A DNA stretch of 64,000 nucleotides from the NCBI GenBank assembly GCA_018650645.1, contig JABIFP010000020.1, positions 8,385 to 72,384 on the forward strand, read 5' to 3'. The translations under genes were made by a program, and so were the position numbers. The first letter of the stretch is position 1. Each line of letters begins with the position of its first letter. The notes beneath the pieces are model-generated. The model worked only from the letters and a program-made list of their open reading frames with translations. It was not told the origin of the DNA and did not search any database. This DNA is from Candidatus Magasanikiibacteriota bacterium (lineage in GTDB: Bacteria; Patescibacteriota; Patescibacteriia; Magasanikbacterales; UBA922). Of the stretch, positions 19,478 to 34,562 are shown piece by piece.

Positions 19478-20848
19478 ATGTCAAATATGATTCACCTATA
19501 TAATAGCTTAAGTAAGCAAAAAATCGCTTTTACTCCCCTTCATGCTGATGAGGTTGGCCTGTATAGCTGCGGCCCTACGGTCTACCACTATGCTCATATT
19601 GGGAACCTCAGATCGTATATATTTCAGGATGTGTTGAAACGTACACTCAGAGCAAATGGGTACAAAGTGCGCCATGTCATGAATATTACTGATGTTGGCC
19701 ATCTCACTGATGACGGCGATGATGGAGAAGATAAAATGGAAAAAGGTTCGGCCAGAGAAGGAAAAACCGCCTGGGATGTTGCGCAGTTTTACACTGATGC
19801 ATTTTATGCTGATATTGCACAATTGAATATTATTGAACCAACAATTTGGTCTAAAGCAACTGATCACATTCCCGAGCAGATTGCGATGGTAGAAAAGCTC
19901 ACTGAAAAAGGACATACCTACCAAACAGAGGACGGTATTTATTTTGACACCACATCGATTGATGATTACGGAAAGTTAGTTGATGTAGATAAACAGGAGT
20001 TGCAAGCTGGCGTACGCGTTGACATGGGAGGAAAAAAGAATCCGCATGATTTTGCACTCTGGAAATTTACTCGAGCAGGAGAAACCCGACAGATGGAATG
20101 GGATGCGTTTATGAGAAAAGGATTTCCCGGTTGGCACATTGAATGTAGTGCCATGGCGCAAAAGTATTTAGGCGATCAGTTTGATATTCACTGCGGTGGA
20201 ATTGATCATAAACCTGTACACCACACAAATGAAATTGCACAAACTGAAGCTTCAACTGGCAAAAAACCGTCAGTGCAGGTTTGGATGCATAATGAATTTT
20301 TAGTGCTTCAAGGCGAAGAAAAAATGTCGAAATCTGGTGATAATTTTATGACACTTTCAAAGATTACGGAAGATGGCATTCCTCCACTGGCGTATCGATA
20401 TTATTTGCTCCAGGCACATTATAGAAAGCAACTTGCCTATTCAACAGAAGCATTGCAGGGAGCAGCGCAAGGACTAAAAACGCTGAAGCGTCTTGTTGCG
20501 GCGATTCCTGACCGTTCCCCAGGCGATTTAACTGTTACTGAAGCGTTTATGCAAGCTGTGAATGATGATCTCAATACTCCAGAGGCACTTGCAGTCCTTT
20601 TTACGGCATTAAAGCGGGGATCAGTGAGCAAAGAGCAAGTCATGCAGTTTGATAAAATATTGGGACTTGATTTGTTAAAGCAATCGATTGTTAATATTCC
20701 CGATGACGTGCAAGTACTTGTAGATAAGCGAGCTGCCGCAAGAACAAAAAAAGACTTCGCTCTCTCTGACGCACTTAGAGATGAAATTGCAACTCACGGA
20801 TTTTCTGTGAAAGATGGAAGTAACGGCCAAGAAATAACACCTGCATAA
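19478..20848 (+). CDS. cysS: cysteinyl-tRNA synthetase
   Basis: HIGH-class motif (HIGN), KMSKS, Zn-binding Cys residues and a DALR-like C-terminus. Length is 456 aa. Confidence 0.95.
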   Translation: MSNMIHLYNSLSKQKIAFTPLHADEVGLYSCGPTVYHYAHIGNLRSYIFQDVLKRTLRANGYKVRHVMNITDVGHLTDDGDDGEDKMEKGSAREGKTAWDVAQFYTDAFYADIAQLNIIEPTIWSKATDHIPEQIAMVEKLTEKGHTYQTEDGIYFDTTSIDDYGKLVDVDKQELQAGVRVDMGGKKNPHDFALWKFTRAGETRQMEWDAFMRKGFPGWHIECSAMAQKYLGDQFDIHCGGIDHKPVHHTNEIAQTEASTGKKPSVQVWMHNEFLVLQGEEKMSKSGDNFMTLSKITEDGIPPLAYRYYLLQAHYRKQLAYSTEALQGAAQGLKTLKRLVAAIPDRSPGDLTVTEAFMQAVNDDLNTPEALAVLFTALKRGSVSKEQVMQFDKILGLDLLKQSIVNIPDDVQVLVDKRAAARTKKDFALSDALRDEIATHGFSVKDGSNGQEITPA

Positions 20849-20849
20849 T

Positions 20850-21338
20850 ATGGCAATCTATACCGACGTTTATAATAATCCACATGAAAAGCCAGAAAAC
20901 ACACCTATTGTGTGGCGGCCTTCAGCGTATACGCTTATTGTAGAAGATGGAAAACTCCTTATGATTCAGCCTTCTTGGCACAAGCAATGGGAGTTACCTG
21001 GCGGTGGTGTAGAAAAAGAAGAACTACTACATGAAGGAGGTGTCAGAGAAACACTTGAAGAAACCGGCTACACGGTAACTATTGATAACATTGAACCTTT
21101 TTTTGTAGAAAGCTGCAGATTCTATATTGATCTGATTACTAAAAACACCTTCTGCAACTCGATTAAAGCATTTTACCTTGCAACTCGCACAGACGATGCA
21201 CAGCAGGAATTACACCAGAATCCTCACGGAATTAATGAAACAGAACAAATGAAATGGATCCCACTCACGGAACTTACTGATAAAATTGTACTGCACGCAC
21301 ACTGGCCAGCAGTGAAAAAACTTCTTGAAAAAAAGTAA
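20850..21338 (+). CDS. NUDIX hydrolase
   Basis: Nudix box GGGVEKEELLHEGGVRETLEETGY. The start codon is 1 nt after the cysS stop. Confidence 0.8.
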   Translation: MAIYTDVYNNPHEKPENTPIVWRPSAYTLIVEDGKLLMIQPSWHKQWELPGGGVEKEELLHEGGVRETLEETGYTVTIDNIEPFFVESCRFYIDLITKNTFCNSIKAFYLATRTDDAQQELHQNPHGINETEQMKWIPLTELTDKIVLHAHWPAVKKLLEKK

Positions 21339-27223: not shown

Positions 27224-30200
27224 TTATACAACAATATTCACAATTCTTCCTGGAATATATATCTGTTTCTTTGGCTCTTTCCCGTCAATAAAGCGTTGCA
27301 CATTCTCTTCTGCATGTGCAGCCTCAAATGCTTGCGCTTCTGTTGCATCAGCTGGCAACGTAATGGTTCCGCGCAATTTTCCGTTTACTTGTACAGCTAC
27401 GGTTAGCGTGTCTTCTACTAATTTTGATTCGTCATATGCTGGCCACTCTGCCAGTGTTGCAGACCCTTCTTTACCAAGCACTTCCCACAGCTCTTCTGCC
27501 ATATGCGGTGCATATGGTGCTAGGATACTTACAAATGTGGCAAAATCATCTTTTGCAATTTGCGTTTCTTTAGTAAATGCATTTGCACATTCCATCATTG
27601 CTGCAATTGCTGTGTTAAATTGCAACTCGGCAGTATCCCCTGTTACCTTTTTAATTGTCTTATGCAGTATACGATTCATTTCTTCTGTACCCGTTTCGGC
27701 AAGCTTTTCTTGCAGCTTCCACACTTTTTCTAGAAATCTTCTTACTCCTTTTACTCCACCGGTGTTCCAGGCTTTTGCCTGATCTAGTGGCCCCATGAAC
27801 ATTTCATACATGCGGACAGTATCTGCTCCGTATTCATTCACCACATCTGTTGGGTTAATCACATTCCCCCACCGCTTACTCATTTTTCTCCCATCTTCAC
27901 CGGAAATAAGTCCCTGATGACGGTTTACTTTAAACGGCTCATCAAAATCGATAAGTCCTTCATCAAAAAGCACCTTTGTGAAGAATCGTGAATACAGGAG
28001 ATGTCCGTTTACATGTTCTTCACCACCCAAGTAGAAATCGATTGGCATCCATTTTTTGAGCTGTTCTTTTGAAGCAAACGCCTCATCATTTTTTGGATCT
28101 AAGTATCTGAAGAAGTACCAGCTAGAACACATAAACGTGTCGAGTGTATCTACCTCTCTCTTCCATCCTTTTCCGTATTTTTCTTCTACCCCATCTTGGA
28201 ATGATGGTGAGTAGTTGAGTGGTGATTGTCCTGTTGGTTTGAAGTCAACATCGTCTGGAAGGATGACTGGGAGGTCTTGTATTGTTAGTGGCCGAAGCCC
28301 AGAAATGAGCGCTTCATCAAGGATGACTTGTTCCTCATTACCATCAAAATGTGGTTTATTTGATTGCGCATAGACCAGCCGAGCATCCAAATCTGTTGCC
28401 ATTTTTTCTAAGTGTTCTTTTTTTATAATTGGGAATGCATTATCTCCAATTATTGTAATTTCAGAACACAACGCTTTTACTTTTTCTGTATCAAACTCCC
28501 ACGTTGTACTGTCTTCTACAACTGTTCTTTTTTTGTCATTGAATTCTGGAACATATACGGGATCCACAAAACACAGCTTTGCAATATTTTTTCCAGATTG
28601 TTCTAACATTCTGAGAGCCACTGCTGCACCGTGACTTTGAGAAACAATAACCGTATTCTCATCAAGTGTAACTTGCTCTAGTGCAAATGTAGCCTGTTCA
28701 TCTGCTTTTGGTTTTTCTGTATTTGGAAGGTCAAATGCCTTGACTATATGACCCTGCAATTCAAGTTCTTGTTTCAACCATGGCCAGAAAATAGCTTCTT
28801 TACCAGAACCGTATCCATGCAAACATACATACAACCTTTTTTTGTTTTTTTCTTCTTCATTTGAAATAACTGGAATTGGCGCACCCCAAAATCGTTGTCT
28901 TGAAACTGACCAATCGCGGAGTTTGTATTGTGTTTTCTTTTTACCAATGTTTTTTTCTTCAAGCCATTCGAACATTCTTGTTTTTGCTTCTTGTGTTGTT
29001 AGATCATTGAGGAATTCCGAGTTTACGACAACACCTTCCCCACTATATGTGCTTGCTTCCACAAACATATTCCATGCAAGAGCGTGTGGATCCCAATTAA
29101 TATCTGTCGCAACCTTTTTCTTATCTTGCCAATACATTTCATGCCTGCCCTCATCAACTTCACATGAGACACGCTCCTCATCTGTCAGCTGTACATGAAA
29201 CCAAACAGAACCTGTTATTTGGTTCTTATTCTTAGTAATGCGATATCCCTGAGCATTAAAATGTTCAATAAATCGGGACCTAATGACATAATTCACATAT
29301 CCACTTTCCTCTTTTATTTCTTTTGTAAGAGCTTCTTCAATACTTTCACCTTCTTCTACACCCCCACCAACAAAATGTACACCGTCGACATCTCTCAAAA
29401 GTAGAAATTTTCCACCATCAGAATTTTCAATGATTACATCTATACATCTACGATTAAGTGTCTCGACTCCATCTTTCATCGCTTTCTTTCCTGTAAAAGC
29501 TACTGACGGAGCAACAACCTGTCTAATCTCCAACCCAAACTTCTTCGCAAACGCAAAGTCCCTCTCATCATGCGCCGGAACGGCCATGATTGCTCCGGTT
29601 CCGTATGTTGCAAGCACGTAATCAGCAATCCAAACGGGAACTTCTTCCCCATTAGCTGGATTTATCGCTTTTACTCCTTTTAGTTCTACTCCTGTTTTTT
29701 CTTGATCTACTTGTCTATCTAAATTCGATTTCTTTTCCGTTGCATGAACATATGCCTGCACTTCATCCCAATTTTTAATTGTTTCTTGCAAGCCCTGTAC
29801 CAAAGCATGTTCTGGCGCAAGTACCATATAGGTTGCTCCAAAAAGCGTATCTGGTCGTGTAGTAAATACGGTAATGTTTTCTTCAGTATCTTTCACGCTA
29901 AACTGCACCTCAGCTCCTTCGCTTCTTCCAATCCAATTTCTTTGCCGAGTAATTGTTTCCTGTGGCCAATCGACTTTATCAAGGTCGTCAATCAACCTAT
30001 CTGCGTAATCTGTTATTTTTAAATACCATTGCTCCATTTCTTTTTGCAAAACTGGAGTATCACAACGTTCACAAGCACCTTCTACAATTTGTGCATTCGC
30101 CAACACTGTTTTACAACTATCACACCAATTCACTGCCTGATTTTTTCTATACGCAAGTCCTCTTTTATACATCAAAAGGAAAAACCACTGTGTCCATTTA

Positions 30201-30601
30201 TAATAATCAGCATTATGTGATCCTACTTCTCTCTCCCAATCGACTGAAATACCGAGCTGCTTAATTTGACTGCGGAAGTTTTCAATTGCCTTATCTGTAT
30301 TAATCCGCGGATGCACATTTGTTTTAATCGCATAATTTTCTGCAGGGAGTCCAAAAGAATCCCACCCAATCGCTTGAAGTACCTTTTTTCCTGTCATTCT
30401 CTGATACCGCGCAAAAATATCACATGCGGTGTATACCTCTGCATGTCCAACATGAAGCCCACTCCCAGAAGGATACGGAAGTTGCGGCAGTATATACATC
30501 TTATTTTCTGACGTTGCGTCTACCGGTGTCTTATAGAGCTTCTGCTCTTCCCAACGTGCTTGCCACTTCTTTTCGATTTCCTTCGGATTATATTGACTCA
30601 T
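27224..30601 (-). CDS. leuS: leucyl-tRNA synthetase, 1125 aa, with two inserted extra domains (NUDIX and alpha/beta serine hydrolase)
   Basis: Full class-I LeuRS framework: HVGH, CP1 editing domain (TTRPDTLFGATY...AHDERDFAFAKKFGL), KMSKR and a C-terminal anticodon-binding region. About 330 extra residues make up two inserted modules. Confidence 0.9.
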   Translation of the reverse strand: MSQYNPKEIEKKWQARWEEQKLYKTPVDATSENKMYILPQLPYPSGSGLHVGHAEVYTACDIFARYQRMTGKKVLQAIGWDSFGLPAENYAIKTNVHPRINTDKAIENFRSQIKQLGISVDWEREVGSHNADYYKWTQWFFLLMYKRGLAYRKNQAVNWCDSCKTVLANAQIVEGACERCDTPVLQKEMEQWYLKITDYADRLIDDLDKVDWPQETITRQRNWIGRSEGAEVQFSVKDTEENITVFTTRPDTLFGATYMVLAPEHALVQGLQETIKNWDEVQAYVHATEKKSNLDRQVDQEKTGVELKGVKAINPANGEEVPVWIADYVLATYGTGAIMAVPAHDERDFAFAKKFGLEIRQVVAPSVAFTGKKAMKDGVETLNRRCIDVIIENSDGGKFLLLRDVDGVHFVGGGVEEGESIEEALTKEIKEESGYVNYVIRSRFIEHFNAQGYRITKNKNQITGSVWFHVQLTDEERVSCEVDEGRHEMYWQDKKKVATDINWDPHALAWNMFVEASTYSGEGVVVNSEFLNDLTTQEAKTRMFEWLEEKNIGKKKTQYKLRDWSVSRQRFWGAPIPVISNEEEKNKKRLYVCLHGYGSGKEAIFWPWLKQELELQGHIVKAFDLPNTEKPKADEQATFALEQVTLDENTVIVSQSHGAAVALRMLEQSGKNIAKLCFVDPVYVPEFNDKKRTVVEDSTTWEFDTEKVKALCSEITIIGDNAFPIIKKEHLEKMATDLDARLVYAQSNKPHFDGNEEQVILDEALISGLRPLTIQDLPVILPDDVDFKPTGQSPLNYSPSFQDGVEEKYGKGWKREVDTLDTFMCSSWYFFRYLDPKNDEAFASKEQLKKWMPIDFYLGGEEHVNGHLLYSRFFTKVLFDEGLIDFDEPFKVNRHQGLISGEDGRKMSKRWGNVINPTDVVNEYGADTVRMYEMFMGPLDQAKAWNTGGVKGVRRFLEKVWKLQEKLAETGTEEMNRILHKTIKKVTGDTAELQFNTAIAAMMECANAFTKETQIAKDDFATFVSILAPYAPHMAEELWEVLGKEGSATLAEWPAYDESKLVEDTLTVAVQVNGKLRGTITLPADATEAQAFEAAHAEENVQRFIDGKEPKKQIYIPGRIVNIVV
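28307..28849 (-). other. alpha/beta serine hydrolase (PF06821/YdeN/RBBP9-like) domain inserted in LeuRS (residues about 585-765)
   Basis: LYVCLHGYGSGKEAIFWPWLKQEL N-terminus typical of the Ser_hydrolase family, and a nucleophile elbow VSQSHGAA. Inserted after DWSVSRQRFWGAPIP and before the KMSKS half. Confidence 0.6.
29042..29479 (-). other. NUDIX hydrolase domain inserted in LeuRS (residues about 375-520)
   Basis: Nudix box GGGVEEGESIEEALTKEIKEESGY (Gx5Ex7[KR]ExxEExGY) located between the CP1 editing domain and the ...VVVNSEFLNDL segment. Confidence 0.7.
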
Positions 30602-30703: not shown

Positions 30704-30921
30704 CAACCGTCTGTGTGAACTGCAATAATCGCTATTGCGCTCACACAAACACCTGTATGATGATCATACCCCAACATTTATGGCCTGAATAGACTGCATG
30801 CAATATGTAATTTACTCTGACCATAAATGAAAGGTAAATTGATGCGACATACAATGGGCTAGAGCCCACACGATGAGATGAGGTGAACAGTCAGCCTCTC
30901 TCCTCCTCACCTGCAGTCTTT

Positions 30922-30975
30922 CGCCCGGTCATTCTGACCACGCGGCGAAGGCTGCGTGATTGGAATGACCGGGCG
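30922..30975 (+). repeat. perfect 13-bp inverted repeat (CGCCCGGTCATTC ... GAATGACCGGGCG) in the leader of the CSD-like gene
   Basis: Arms at 30922-30934 and 30963-30975 separated by 28 nt, just upstream of the Shine-Dalgarno sequence and ATG at 31004. Confidence 0.5.
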
Positions 30976-31003
30976 AAGGAACGCCCGGCGAACGGAGGAC
31001 GAG

Positions 31004-31576
31004 ATGGCTGAGAAGATGAACAGAGGATGGGTGACACGGTACAACCGGGAACGCCGATTCGGCTTCGCGGAGGTGCATGTGGATGGCGTTCGTGAAAGCG
31101 TGTTCCTTCACATGGACCAATGCCGGAAGCTGGCTGGCGTCCCGGAGAACCCGCACTTCACCCTCAGAGAAGACAACCAGGAGCCCAGGACCTGCGGGCG
31201 CGATTCCTACAGCATCCGTCTCCACTTGGAGCGGACGTACAAGGGGTTGCGTGCCAAGACGTGGGGCTACTGGTTCTGGTACCATGACCTGGCCAGCAAC
31301 GGCTTCTTCGACCCCGTCATCAAGATGCGGGTCGAGAGAAAGAGCTACGCGGACCGTGCGTTCCGCGTCCAGCAGCAGATGACGGTCATCTCCGTCCAGC
31401 TGGACATCGACACGCTCGTGGTGACCAAAGTTGAAGGCGGTGTAATCCGCCTGAAGCTGCCCAACCGCGTGCAGCAGGAGAGCCTGAGGCGCGAGGAGGG
31501 CTGCCACCCGTTGGCGTTCAGCTACGAAAACGTCGAAGCTGAGTGCGACGAGCGCATGGTCTTTTTGACCAGATAA
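31004..31576 (+). CDS. cold-shock-domain-like protein with C-terminal domain of unknown function, in a GC-rich islet
   Basis: GGAGGA Shine-Dalgarno sequence and ATG. The N-terminus GWVTRYNRERRFGFAEVHVDGVRESVFLHMDQ resembles a CSD (RNP1-like FGFA). The rest is unknown. About 60% GC. Confidence 0.5.
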   Translation: MAEKMNRGWVTRYNRERRFGFAEVHVDGVRESVFLHMDQCRKLAGVPENPHFTLREDNQEPRTCGRDSYSIRLHLERTYKGLRAKTWGYWFWYHDLASNGFFDPVIKMRVERKSYADRAFRVQQQMTVISVQLDIDTLVVTKVEGGVIRLKLPNRVQQESLRREEGCHPLAFSYENVEAECDERMVFLTR

Positions 31577-31880
31577 ACCTGAAAGGAGAACTTCCAGAGT
31601 GGCGATTCTGGACAGCGATTGACGGCCTGACTCCTCACCGAGTCAGGCTATAACGACATAGCGGCCTCAACACGCCGCACAACAGCCGCAAGGCTGAAGA
31701 GAGATGAAGATCTCCGGCAGACGCCAAGTCAGTCATGGGCAAACATGACAAGACGGCAGTCTCCAAAGACTAAAGGGAGGGATTGGGACCCGCACGCACC
31801 GAAGCCGCGCAAGCCGCTGACGTTCACGATGTGGTCCCAACCTCAATTAATTGCACAATGTGTTGTGCGCTTTGAGAGGA

Positions 31881-33212: not shown

Positions 33213-34562
33213 CTATGCTGCCAAATCTGTATCCGTAATACCAAGTCTACTTAGTAACGCGAGATGTTCTGGATTAGACGGGTCGTATTTACCCACACTA
33301 AACTGCATAGCAGCATCAGGATCTTCACCTACTAAATTCCAAATATCGATATTCCCTTCTCTATAAATCATATCTTTTGTAAAACACACTCCTGGAGTTT
33401 TGCCGTCCGTACCTCTAAATACTCGAACAGATCTATTATAGGCAAGCGTATCTGCCTTGCCCGATGCCGCAGCAGGATCCATTCCGCTCAATAATTTTTC
33501 TAAGTACATCTGGGCACGTATAATCTCATATACTTCTCTAAATCCTCGTTTCTGTCCATCAACACCTCTCGCGAGTGCAATGCCCAGATGTCCTGCCATT
33601 CCAGCAAAATCTTGGACATCTCCCGTTACCGCTTGCTCACGCATGGTAGCAACGCCCTCTTCCCCGCGCTCATATCTATCAAGTCCAAGCCCCAAAAGCT
33701 GTAACTTACTGTGTTCTCCATTCACACGCCGCGCAACGTGCGTTCCAATTTCATGTACAATAAGTTGCTGCAATTTCTTTGCGGTCATGCTTCTTCCCTC
33801 TGGAACAACTACTTTTTTTTCTTCTTGATTTACACTAATGCTCGTTTTGCCCGTGTCTACCACTTCCACAGTCCATCCGGTTAGCTCTAAAGAACTCATA
33901 GCCTCCCTAAATACCTCCTGAATTTGACCAGCCTCATACTGTTCTACCTTTGTATCAACAGCCGCCATAGCCTCTGAAAATGCATCCAGCGTTTGCACCT
34001 GCATAGCATCAACGATATTTTGTGTAGGAAGCGCAGCTACATCATGTGCTGAACCTTCCGGAAGAATCTCAATCAATTGCTGCGCTGCCGCAGCGATATC
34101 GGGGTTATCAGAAGAAAGTGCATCATGAGCTTTCTTACTTTCTGTTGCCAGCGTATATCCAAAAACCTGTGCAGAAGGTTCACCATATACAAAAGAGGTG
34201 TATTTCGAAAAGCGCTTCATATTCCCATTCAAGGCAGCCTTCATCATCCGTACTTCTGCAATTTTTTCGTTTATCTTCCATCTGTACGCTTGCTTTACAT
34301 CGGGATTTGGTTCTTTATTTAAAATATCTTTTTTCAATGCGAGTAGGTCATCTTCCTTAGTCTGTAAATCACCCATATTCAATTTAGGGTAATCAAGTGC
34401 GGGTGCATCAATTTCCCCATCCATAAATGCACGCTTCTGCTCTGCTCTGGCTTCTCTATCTCCAGAGAAATATTCGTATGCCTGAAAAGATCCAGCCCCC
34501 TCAAATCGACCATACCACTGTGCATCAAGTGGCTCTTGTTCTCTTCTTCTCATGCCTTCCAT
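33213..34562 (-). CDS. DUF1704/QEGLA-motif-like putative metallo-hydrolase
   Basis: HEIGTHVARR plus ...GEEGVATMREQ, resembling the flavohemoglobin-expression-modulating QEGLA family. The assignment is tentative. Confidence 0.35.
   Translation of the reverse strand: MEGMRRREQEPLDAQWYGRFEGAGSFQAYEYFSGDREARAEQKRAFMDGEIDAPALDYPKLNMGDLQTKEDDLLALKKDILNKEPNPDVKQAYRWKINEKIAEVRMMKAALNGNMKRFSKYTSFVYGEPSAQVFGYTLATESKKAHDALSSDNPDIAAAAQQLIEILPEGSAHDVAALPTQNIVDAMQVQTLDAFSEAMAAVDTKVEQYEAGQIQEVFREAMSSLELTGWTVEVVDTGKTSISVNQEEKKVVVPEGRSMTAKKLQQLIVHEIGTHVARRVNGEHSKLQLLGLGLDRYERGEEGVATMREQAVTGDVQDFAGMAGHLGIALARGVDGQKRGFREVYEIIRAQMYLEKLLSGMDPAAASGKADTLAYNRSVRVFRGTDGKTPGVCFTKDMIYREGNIDIWNLVGEDPDAAMQFSVGKYDPSNPEHLALLSRLGITDTDLAA

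Follow-up and report, generated by a model that had tools for sequence, protein, structure and literature searches.

What are two hydrolase domains doing in the middle of a leucyl-tRNA synthetase? The question is raised by the leuS gene of a Candidatus Magasanikbacteria bacterium (Patescibacteria), which lies in a 64,000-nucleotide stretch of the contig JABIFP010000020.1 (positions 8,385 to 72,384; 'the window' in the following, i.e. the whole stretch that was analyzed). In a single open reading frame (ORF), this gene encodes a bacterial-type leucyl-tRNA synthetase (LeuRS) with a Nudix hydrolase domain and a YdeN/RBBP9-type α/β serine hydrolase domain (SH) nested in it. Aminoacyl-tRNA synthetases (aaRSs) are known to carry editing domains, tRNA-binding appendages and eukaryotic signalling domains, and LysRS-MprF (LysX) is reportedly another synthetase with an extra catalytic module. 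Here, generic small-molecule hydrolases, or elsewhere GNAT, HAD and methyltransferase domains, are nested repeatedly and independently in bacterial LeuRS, which is a validated antibiotic target.

A first description of this gene, made by a model from the sequence of the window and referred to as the original prediction below, had reported two inserted enzymatic domains. We find that these inserts are exchangeable accessory cassettes that occur at several sites, a point absent from that description, and that SH is genetically tied to LeuRS, either nested in it or encoded just upstream. It is possible, though we would not yet count on it, that YdeN/RBBP9-type hydrolases are dedicated LeuRS partners in ultra-small bacteria and archaea, where they would provide a modular clean-up of aminoacyl compounds or an in-cis antidote, in the form of hot-swappable cassettes and frequently alongside an NTP or ApnA pyrophosphatase.

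To our knowledge, the YdeN/RBBP9-type family has no assigned cellular role in prokaryotes. In the open-access full-text literature, we found no description of any aaRS with nested Nudix or α/β-hydrolase domains, nor of an association between YdeN/RBBP9 and LeuRS. The proteins in question go by inconsistent database names, such as 'alpha/beta fold hydrolase', 'class I tRNA ligase family protein' or 'hypothetical protein', and the automatic JGI name 'leucyl-tRNA synthetase/predicted alpha/beta hydrolase family esterase' illustrates that pipelines do pick up the fusion; as far as we could find, its interpretation has apparently not been published. Recognizing the architecture would correct these annotations. 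What makes it unusual is the exchange of cassettes between otherwise identical alleles and the conserved association, as neighbor or fusion partner, with an orphan family of hydrolases. Should the coupling prove functional, this orphan prokaryotic family would gain a testable cellular role, either as a new proofreading or detoxification step or as a resistance located on the drug target itself, and leuS would be an essential gene with a population-exchanged internal cassette (~100% identity outside, 23% inside), which is unusual for a core translation gene.

The LeuRS framework

The leuS gene extends over positions 27224..30601 of the reverse strand, to which all parts described below belong, as one unbroken ORF with an ATG start and 1125 codons for amino acids. 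The NCBIfam model leuS_bact (TIGR00396) matches the encoded protein with 945 bits (cutoff 548.4) in three stretches, with the inserts between them, and the LeuRS of Thermus thermophilus (Tt; 1h3n) aligns with an E-value of 7.8e-212 in four collinear blocks, in which residues 1–364, 518–580, 768–899 and 906–1125 of the query correspond to Tt residues 1–363, 376–438, 443–577 and 637–876, respectively. Consequently, residues 365–517 and 581–767 are without a counterpart in LeuRS.

The N-terminal half of the catalytic Rossmann domain (aa 1–225; 29927..30601; Pfam tRNA-synt_1 at aa 12–224) contains the HVGH motif (aa 50–53; nt 30443–30454). It is followed by the first part of the CP1 editing domain (aa 226–364; 29510..29926; Pfam tRNA-synt_1_2 at aa 221–368) with TTRPDT at 247–252, AHDERD at 343–348 and GTGAIMAVPAHDERD, which includes D345; the score of the CP1 editing domain PF13603 is 209.5 bits. 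After insert 1 at site 1, the Nudix hydrolase (aa 365–517; 29051..29509), the chain completes CP1 and returns to the catalytic core (aa 518–580; 28862..29050; aligned to Tt 376–438), ending in SRQRFWGAPIP (567–577). Insert 2 at site 2, SH (aa 581–767; 28301..28861), precedes the second half of the catalytic domain, with KMSKR (aa 906–910; nt 27872–27886), and the anticodon-binding and C-terminal domains (aa 768–1125; 27227..28300; Tt alignment and Pfam Anticodon_1 at aa 976–1087). Among 116 homologs, H50, G52, H53 and D345 are invariant, HVGH and KMSKR as a whole are invariant or nearly so, T247–T252 are nearly invariant, and almost all residues from 563 to 577, i.e. around SRQRFWGAPIP, are invariant.

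An AlphaFold2 model of the full-length protein, computed with these 116 homologs, has a mean pLDDT of 91.5 and a pTM of 0.84, and its LeuRS part superimposes on E. coli LeuRS with a TMt of 0.85. Canonical bacterial LeuRS (E. coli, 4aq7/5on2; T. thermophilus, 1h3n/2bte) are about 30% identical to the query (model TMt 0.79–0.85) and share with it the class Ia core with HIGH and KMSKS, CP1 with its T-rich and GTG...HD motifs, and the anticodon-binding and C-terminal domains. The query differs from them in its length, to which the two nested catalytic domains add about 340 residues, and in lacking the leucine-specific domain (Tt 577–637 in the 1h3n alignment) and the ZN2 cysteines. With its HVGH, KMSKR and CP1 editing motifs intact, the protein is almost certainly a bacterial-type LeuRS of Candidatus Magasanikbacteria, for which leucylation as well as editing can be predicted. 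Within the 64-kb window, there is no second LeuRS, and the gene sits at the locus where related genomes have their leuS; the synteny with orthologs that have no insert or only Nudix suggests that it is the housekeeping copy of the genome.

Thus, the original prediction, namely a complete LeuRS into which two hydrolase domains of named families, both catalytically plausible, are inserted, is borne out by Pfam, NCBIfam and the matches to YdeN and RBBP9. All motifs that it had quoted, including HVGH, the Nudix box, SRQRFWGAPIP and KMSKR, could be located, and its insert limits agree with those given above to about ten codons. Likewise, a full-length Pfam scan recovered the expected NUDIX, tRNA-synt_1 and Anticodon_1 domains, whereas the equally expected PF06821 emerged only with the isolated insert.

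A fusion of this kind could in principle stem from chimeric assembly or from separate genes read through as one, and a somewhat lower GC content at third codon positions (GC3) in the block from aa 365 to 767 (28301–29509; 0.26 versus 0.34 in the rest of leuS, p = 0.005) is the sole hint in this direction. However, the identical 1125-residue protein (MBT4153494.1, 'class I tRNA ligase family protein [Candidatus Magasanikbacteria bacterium]') is found on six contigs, the longest of 407 kb, from four source collections (NCBI, JGI, Logan and ENA), which argues that it is not a chimera and settles the concern of the original prediction about the assembly. More than 20 homologs with both inserts from independent assemblies, and dozens with a single one, share the boundaries, and the LeuRS segments flanking each insert are collinear with solved LeuRS structures and fold as a normal LeuRS. 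An artefact is therefore so improbable that we disregard it. We also considered an intein or a mobile element and rejected this idea: the ORF gave no Pfam matches to Hint, intein, endonuclease, transposase or other mobility-gene families, and the junctions of the inserts (PVIS/NEEE, ALIS/GLRP, QVVA/PSVA and VEAS/TYSG) do not correspond to the intein pattern of a nucleophile and His-Asn.

A Nudix hydrolase within the editing domain

At site 1, Pfam NUDIX (PF00293) matches aa 384–497 with 42.5 bits (gathering threshold 21.1). The Nudix box, GGVEEGESIEEALTKEIKEESGY, comprises aa 413–435 (nt 29297–29365) and conforms to the consensus Gx5Ex7REUxEExGU in G413, E419, E428, I429, E431, E432, G434 and Y435, while position 15 is occupied by a lysine (K427) instead of arginine. 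The query is the only matched box with this lysine; every other homolog whose box was matched has arginine, and the great majority of Nudix-type inserts at site 1 retain the box with its REx2EE. The original prediction had placed this domain after the editing domain. It is in fact nested inside CP1, as the Pfam model of the editing domain covers only its profile positions 1–145 of 185 and ends before insert 1.

Modelled alone, the insert reaches a pLDDT of 96.6 and adopts the Nudix α/β/α fold, with helix 57–69 (insert numbering) on the box. It shares its fold and all catalytic box glutamates with small single-domain Nudix hydrolases (2azw, 3i7u, NudB, NudI and RppH), but differs from them in its nesting within CP1 and in the lysine that replaces the box arginine. 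The best match of a profile of site-1 Nudix inserts is 2azw, an uncharacterized MutT/nudix protein of E. faecalis (6.8e-15; TM-scores of the model 0.79/0.83), followed among the structural and profile neighbors by Ap4A hydrolases, NudB, NudI, RppH and MutT.

On the basis of the dinucleoside polyphosphates that synthetases make, the original prediction had considered an Ap4A/ApnA hydrolase that clears these side products. Its appeal lies in the presence of Ap4A/Ap6A hydrolases from Aquifex (3i7u; TM 0.69/0.78, rmsd 2.7), lupin (1f3y), T. thermophilus (Ndx1) and Chlamydia (CT771) among the nearest relatives, and in the conserved catalytic glutamates. Yet 2azw is closer, NudB, NudI, RppH and MutT score similarly, and the insert consensus conserves no subfamily signature past the Nudix box. 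Furthermore, other folds replace Nudix at site 1, and in an archaeal-type leuS operon described below (L088), the equivalent slot is taken by an enzyme of the Ham1/ITPase type rather than by an ApnA hydrolase. We therefore regard such a specific role as doubtful.

Close free-standing relatives of the insert did not emerge from the profile search, which returned only distant Nudix proteins (≤79 bits, compared with 85–150 bits for nested copies). One apparent free Nudix (P0278) proved to be a fragment of a leuS with Nudix, a gene that was shattered in gene calling, probably owing to an alternative genetic code. As noted in the original prediction, the window does contain a free NUDIX gene (20850–21338, forward strand; PF00293, 55 bits), which begins 2 nt past the stop codon of cysS (19478–20848). 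It is 32% identical to the LeuRS insert over 68 aa around the Nudix box and shares little beyond; with 59 bits to the insert profile and 55 bits to the generic Pfam model, it was dismissed as specific kin of the insert. As a side observation, this makes cysS-NUDIX the second juxtaposition of an aaRS and a Nudix protein in the window.

A YdeN/RBBP9-type serine hydrolase in the catalytic core

Insert 2 starts three residues past SRQRFWGAPIP, within the catalytic core. In isolation, it matches PF06821 with 33.6 bits (gathering threshold 22); this family was not reported in the full-length scan, which contained only Abhydrolase_6 below its threshold (19.4 bits), and a word-index search with insert 2 alone gave no match. 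The insert alone detects YdeN (1uxo) with an E-value of 3.9e-10 and RBBP9 with 1.5e-6, and a profile of 26 SH inserts improves these values to 3.8e-24 and 7.7e-16. With YdeN from B. subtilis, human RBBP9 (2qs9/9fcr) and ML-005, SH shares the minimal, lid-less α/β-hydrolase architecture of about 180 residues and the aligned HG motif, elbow serine and C-terminal histidine.

The oxyanion-hole HG (595–596) is part of LHGYG (594–598), and the nucleophile S656 (nt 28634–28636) is part of SQSHG (654–658), where the family reads AHSLG. H595, S656 and H751 (nt 28349–28351) are present in all 64 SH inserts. The position of the third triad residue separates two subtypes, between which the acids co-vary. 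In subtype A, to which the query and 51 other inserts belong, the position of the canonical aspartate (723; D138 in RBBP9) is non-acidic in 50/52 sequences, mostly Y, F, H, P or C (47/52), and Glu in the other two; the query has F723 in place of the family's aspartate. All 52 instead possess D680 (nt 28562–28564) and an acid, D or E, at 720 (D720 in the query; nt 28442–28444). By contrast, the 12 inserts of subtype B keep D723 and have no acid at 680 or 720. D720, which closes strand 7 three residues before 723, and D680, which follows strand 6, are thus candidate replacement acids as judged from the alignment.

In the AlphaFold2 model, S656 follows the strand 650–655, D720 closes the strand 712–720 and H751 comes after the strand 741–745 (DSSP), so that the predicted strand order is the canonical one of α/β-hydrolases. 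The pLDDT is 93–98 across SH, and the means of 10-residue blocks are mostly above 90 across both inserts, which are hence predicted to fold as confident, compact domains. Because their catalytic residues are kept across dozens of diverged homologs, both are most likely active enzymes.

Clues to the chemistry of SH come from its relatives. ML-005, a YdeN homolog, is an esterase for soluble short-chain esters with a Ser-Asp-His triad whose members are all essential (PMC6119806), and RBBP9 is acylated by single Leu/Ile, Met, Phe, Tyr or Trp residues, provided that their α-amine is free (PMC8866121). The positions of the hydrophobic cage of RBBP9 appear conserved and hydrophobic in subtype A (F687 and I726, each in 50/52), and D689 (50/52) maps by alignment to the loop that bears the amine-binding E108 of RBBP9.

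Exchange of cassettes among LeuRS homologs

The 120 best LeuRS matches come from Patescibacteria, by their source names mostly from Magasanikbacteria, and all of their inserts fall at the same two sites. Site 1 is either empty (0–30 aa) or houses Nudix, a SAM-methyltransferase (P0050, P0055 and P0111), an HAD domain (P0017) or a domain of about 120 residues (about aa 365–490 in P0025, P0026 and P0029), for which there was no Pfam match. Site 2 is either 6 aa long or filled by SH. Related LeuRS come with neither insert (31), SH only (29), Nudix only (22) or both (21), besides mixed forms. The original prediction's rating of the architecture as very unusual holds for aaRSs in general but not for the LeuRS of Patescibacteria, where it is common: Nudix at site 1 extends to Saccharibacteria, Taylorbacteria and further Patescibacteria, and a LeuRS of Vogelbacteria gave a weak partial match.

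Nudix and SH occur independently of each other (Fisher p = 0.70), and on the tree of the LeuRS core each changes its state at least 27 times by Fitch parsimony. These counts, like our neighbor-joining trees, are rough, and we place weight on pairwise mosaic cases rather than on exact gains and losses. For instance, P0049 and P0052 are 100% identical over alignment positions 1–540, 96% identical over 541–570 and again 96–100% identical from about 811 on, while their SH cassettes share only 23% identity and belong to different subtypes, one to B and the other to A. P0040 and P0066 exhibit the same mosaic pattern.

A similar picture emerges from the locus of the window. One related contig (L094) has the same gene order, i.e. 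IF2, thioredoxin, a MATCAP-like protein, glutamate dehydrogenase (GDH), leuS, PEGA, an EPSP-synthase-family protein (PF00275) and an S41 peptidase, and its LeuRS (P0002) has Nudix and no SH; a second, partly syntenic one (L093) encodes a LeuRS (P0057) with neither insert, a state also represented by the homolog P0044. The Nudix inserts of the window and L094 share 35% identity, compared with 83% for the LeuRS core and 57–85% for the neighboring proteins. Over all pairs, the identity of the inserts is uncorrelated with that of the core (Spearman coefficients of 0.11 for the Nudix and 0.00 for the SH cassettes). Near-invariant LeuRS motifs that flank each site could serve as recombination arms, and the low GC3 of the block from Nudix through the intervening segment to SH would fit its acquisition as one recombination tract.

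In L052, L068 (Bacteriovorax) and L073 (Paceibacteria), the leuS matches span 3.5–4.5 kb; in L052, an ORF for an 809-residue LeuRS is followed by a 517-residue ORF into which the match runs, and the leuS of L073 is distributed over four ORFs. Neither SH nor Nudix was detected in L052 and L073. In L090 (4167–7132) and L091, a Nudix-bearing leuS and its neighbors (RuvB, AA_kinase and others) were called as many short ORFs, which suggests a reassigned stop codon in this lineage rather than pseudogenes.

SH at other sites, in other hosts and beside leuS

An exhaustive search of 1.84 billion representative proteins with the SH profile, which was built from LeuRS inserts, yielded 4040 relatives, and about 50 of the best 150 are LeuRS. 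Besides site 2, where two distinct SH lineages reside, SH is found in LeuRS at site 0, just before TTRPDT (aa 236–242 in query numbering), at site 1 (P0216) and at site 3, at about aa 968–976 (P0263, Peregrinibacteria). The site-0 copies come with or without Nudix at site 1 and at times with Nudix or GNAT alongside; P0198, for instance, has GNAT and SH before CP1. In a tree of 206 SH domains, the site-2 copies of subtype A form one clade, those of subtype B form a separate clade adjoining free-standing proteins, and the site-0 copies are mixed among free-standing proteins. Together with the differing sites, this topology implies that LeuRS captured SH at least four or five times.

Domains of the same SH clade are further nested in UvrA, SecA, EngA/Der, TsaD, AlaRS and ValRS (among P0231/P0270, P0133, P0183, P0173, P0182 and P0185), and fused to Peptidase_S51 (P0208), S9/S33-like hydrolase and glyoxalase domains.

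Free-standing SH genes are linked to LeuRS as well. The closest ones immediately precede leuS, on its own strand, in 5/5 look-ups with an identifiable downstream gene, a count without a proper negative control, since P0129, P0136 and the control P0200 lie on contigs too short to be informative. The SH proteins of these five look-ups belong to the clade that also holds LeuRS-nested copies. The distance to leuS is 6 nt in L083, with an 809-residue LeuRS devoid of inserts, 36 nt in L087, with an 801-residue LeuRS, and 24 nt in L096/L097, where the 957-residue LeuRS already has a Nudix insert; at the locus of P0138, SH is followed without a gap by a 957-residue enzyme whose N-terminus best matches archaeal-type LeuRS. 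Finally, the tight operon of L088 (5001–9882), in which start and stop codons overlap or abut, encodes two SH proteins (182 and 192 aa), a YbaK-like tRNA_edit protein (PF04073; 162 aa), a Ham1-like NTP pyrophosphatase (205 aa) and an archaeal-type LeuRS (883 aa; leuS_arch, 784 bits, cutoff 648.5). One archaeal-type LeuRS beside free SH is thus confirmed (L088) and another one probable (P0138), and L088 repeats the theme of aminoacyl hydrolase, nucleotide pyrophosphatase and LeuRS with a pyrophosphatase that is not homologous to Nudix.

The breadth of hosts keeps alive the notion that the cassettes are passengers, i.e. housekeeping enzymes in permissive loops of essential, well-expressed genes of tiny genomes, with no tie to leucylation. 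They would gain co-expression or a selfish safe haven, and homologous recombination over conserved flanking motifs would shuffle them. The four or more unrelated folds at site 1, the independence of Nudix and SH, the decoupling of cassette and core identity, the GC3 difference and the near-invariant motifs around both sites would all be expected under this scenario. It is at odds, however, with the bias of SH for LeuRS (110 of the 206 domains examined, with the profile built from LeuRS inserts, compared with 7 in the six other hosts named above), with the four or more independent entries at different sites, and with the free SH genes upstream of leuS. Moreover, bacterial-type and archaeal-type LeuRS are too different to share recombination arms, so that the pairing of SH with both counts against it, as does the lack of any mobility gene or intein signature in the Pfam scan of the ORF. 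On balance, we consider mere passengers unlikely, though not implausible.

Patescibacteria are generally auxotrophic, and SH might thus act in substrate supply, as an aminopeptidase that frees N-terminal leucine and other hydrophobic residues from scavenged peptides and feeds the LeuRS of an auxotroph. RBBP9 is indeed an aminopeptidase for hydrophobic N-terminal residues (PMC8866121), and the fusions of SH to S51-type and S9/S33-type peptidase domains would be in line with this role. Yet it explains neither the pairing with a YbaK-like deacylase and an NTP pyrophosphatase, nor the choice of LeuRS as host, nor the ready loss and swapping of the cassettes; furthermore, free amino acids diffuse, and physical coupling would be of little benefit. 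We therefore deem substrate supply very unlikely.

Possible functions of the cassettes

Given the chemistry of the RBBP9 family and the genetic linkage of SH to LeuRS and to a YbaK-type deacylase, our preferred reading, to which we give guarded and by no means firm credence, is that SH may be a LeuRS-coupled aminoacyl-ester or adenylate hydrolase and Nudix its nucleotide pyrophosphatase partner. The SH cassette would act in cis, with Ser656 as the nucleophile toward the carbonyl of a hydrophobic aminoacyl group that has a free α-amine and is made at or released from LeuRS, for instance on mis-acylated tRNA(Leu) or on an escaped non-cognate aminoacyl-adenylate, and would provide a dispensable clean-up in addition to CP1. 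Nudix, in turn, might hydrolyze a nucleotide-pyrophosphate side product, ApnA being one candidate, or a non-canonical NTP; the Ham1-type NTP pyrophosphatase would fill its equivalent place in the L088 operon. The proposal of the original prediction that the serine hydrolase is a deacylating or trans-editing module thereby receives indirect support from RBBP9 chemistry, from the free SH genes upstream of leuS and from the operon with the YbaK-type deacylase, but not from homology: Pfam and NCBIfam scans revealed no relationship of the query to the known trans-editing folds YbaK/ProX (PF04073), AlaX and DTD.

There is precedent for the principle. The INS domain of ProRS and free YbaK, AlaX and the GNAT domain of IleRS (NCBIfam NF040702) all represent modules that act on aminoacyl compounds and are fused or adjacent to a synthetase, and YbaK-type genes shuttle between free and inserted forms, as SH does. 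Unlike these add-ons, however, the modules described here are built on α/β-hydrolase and Nudix folds, which are not known as editing folds, and they are optional, occur at several sites and are exchanged between alleles.

Several findings weigh against a LeuRS-coupled hydrolase with a pyrophosphatase partner. CP1 is intact in every homolog, which leaves no obvious editing gap to fill. The SH clade is nested in UvrA, SecA and EngA, which do not handle aminoacyl esters, and the admission of methyltransferase, HAD and other domains to site 1 speaks against a LeuRS-specific chemistry there. The two inserts are patchy and mutually independent, and their swapping between near-identical LeuRS alleles is more akin to a conflict or accessory trait than to quality control. 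For Nudix, close free-standing kin did not turn up, nor did a neighborhood signal near leuS. Finally, the query itself departs from its families at both active sites, with K427 in the Nudix box and SQSHG at the nucleophile elbow.

The traits of conflict lead to an in-cis antidote as a serious rival, according to which the cassettes shield LeuRS from leucyl-adenylate mimics, i.e. Trojan-horse aaRS inhibitors, by cleaving or modifying the aminoacyl-nucleotide at its target. SH would cleave the aminoacyl-nucleotide bond like MccF or MccG, GNAT would acetylate the α-amine like MccE, and the Nudix, HAD and methyltransferase domains would be directed against the nucleotide moiety. Enzymes of this kind are well established: aminoacyl-nucleotide inhibitors of aaRSs are detoxified by the GNAT enzyme MccE2, the serine carboxypeptidase MccF, the S51 peptidase MccG and MccH, small hydrolases and acetyltransferases of which many are stand-alone and patchily distributed (PMC9239234). 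The cassettes of LeuRS echo this enzyme logic in the pairing of GNAT and SH (P0198), in the methyltransferase and HAD domains and in the SH–Peptidase_S51 fusion (P0208). Likewise, an 'exception' model of NCBIfam describes IleRS with a GNAT domain, LeuRS is the known target of agrocin 84/TM84 (PDB 3zgz), and patchiness, the decoupling of core and cassette and swaps between ~100%-identical alleles are typical of arms-race traits. On the other hand, the Mcc enzymes are not fused to their target synthetases, and Pfam and NCBIfam detected no homology between them and the inserts. We found no inhibitor or biosynthetic gene cluster linked to these organisms, and PADLOC returned only a generic Nudix-box match in the window. 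The YbaK-like deacylase and the Ham1-like enzyme of the SH operon have no obvious role in such a defense, the presence of SH in UvrA, SecA and EngA does not fit it, and the action of an RBBP9-type enzyme on aminoacyl-sulfamoyl or -phosphoramidate nucleotides would be proposed by analogy. Altogether, we judge the antidote improbable, and less likely than the LeuRS-coupled hydrolase that we favor.

The surroundings of leuS

Upstream of leuS, Rfam detected no T-box or other leader. Between leuS and the GDH gene lies an island of about 1 kb (30850–31850) with a GC content near 0.60, compared with a background of 0.42. It holds an ORF of 206 codons (30956..31576, forward strand), for which Pfam and PADLOC gave no match, and an antisense ORF (30929..31507); in L094, the slot of this island contains a gene for a 162-residue Sigma70_r2 protein. 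The MATCAP-like gene of the locus (33213–34562, reverse strand), which is kept in L094, encodes a 449-residue protein with a 96-bit match to PF08014 (MATCAP, microtubule-associated tyrosine carboxypeptidase).

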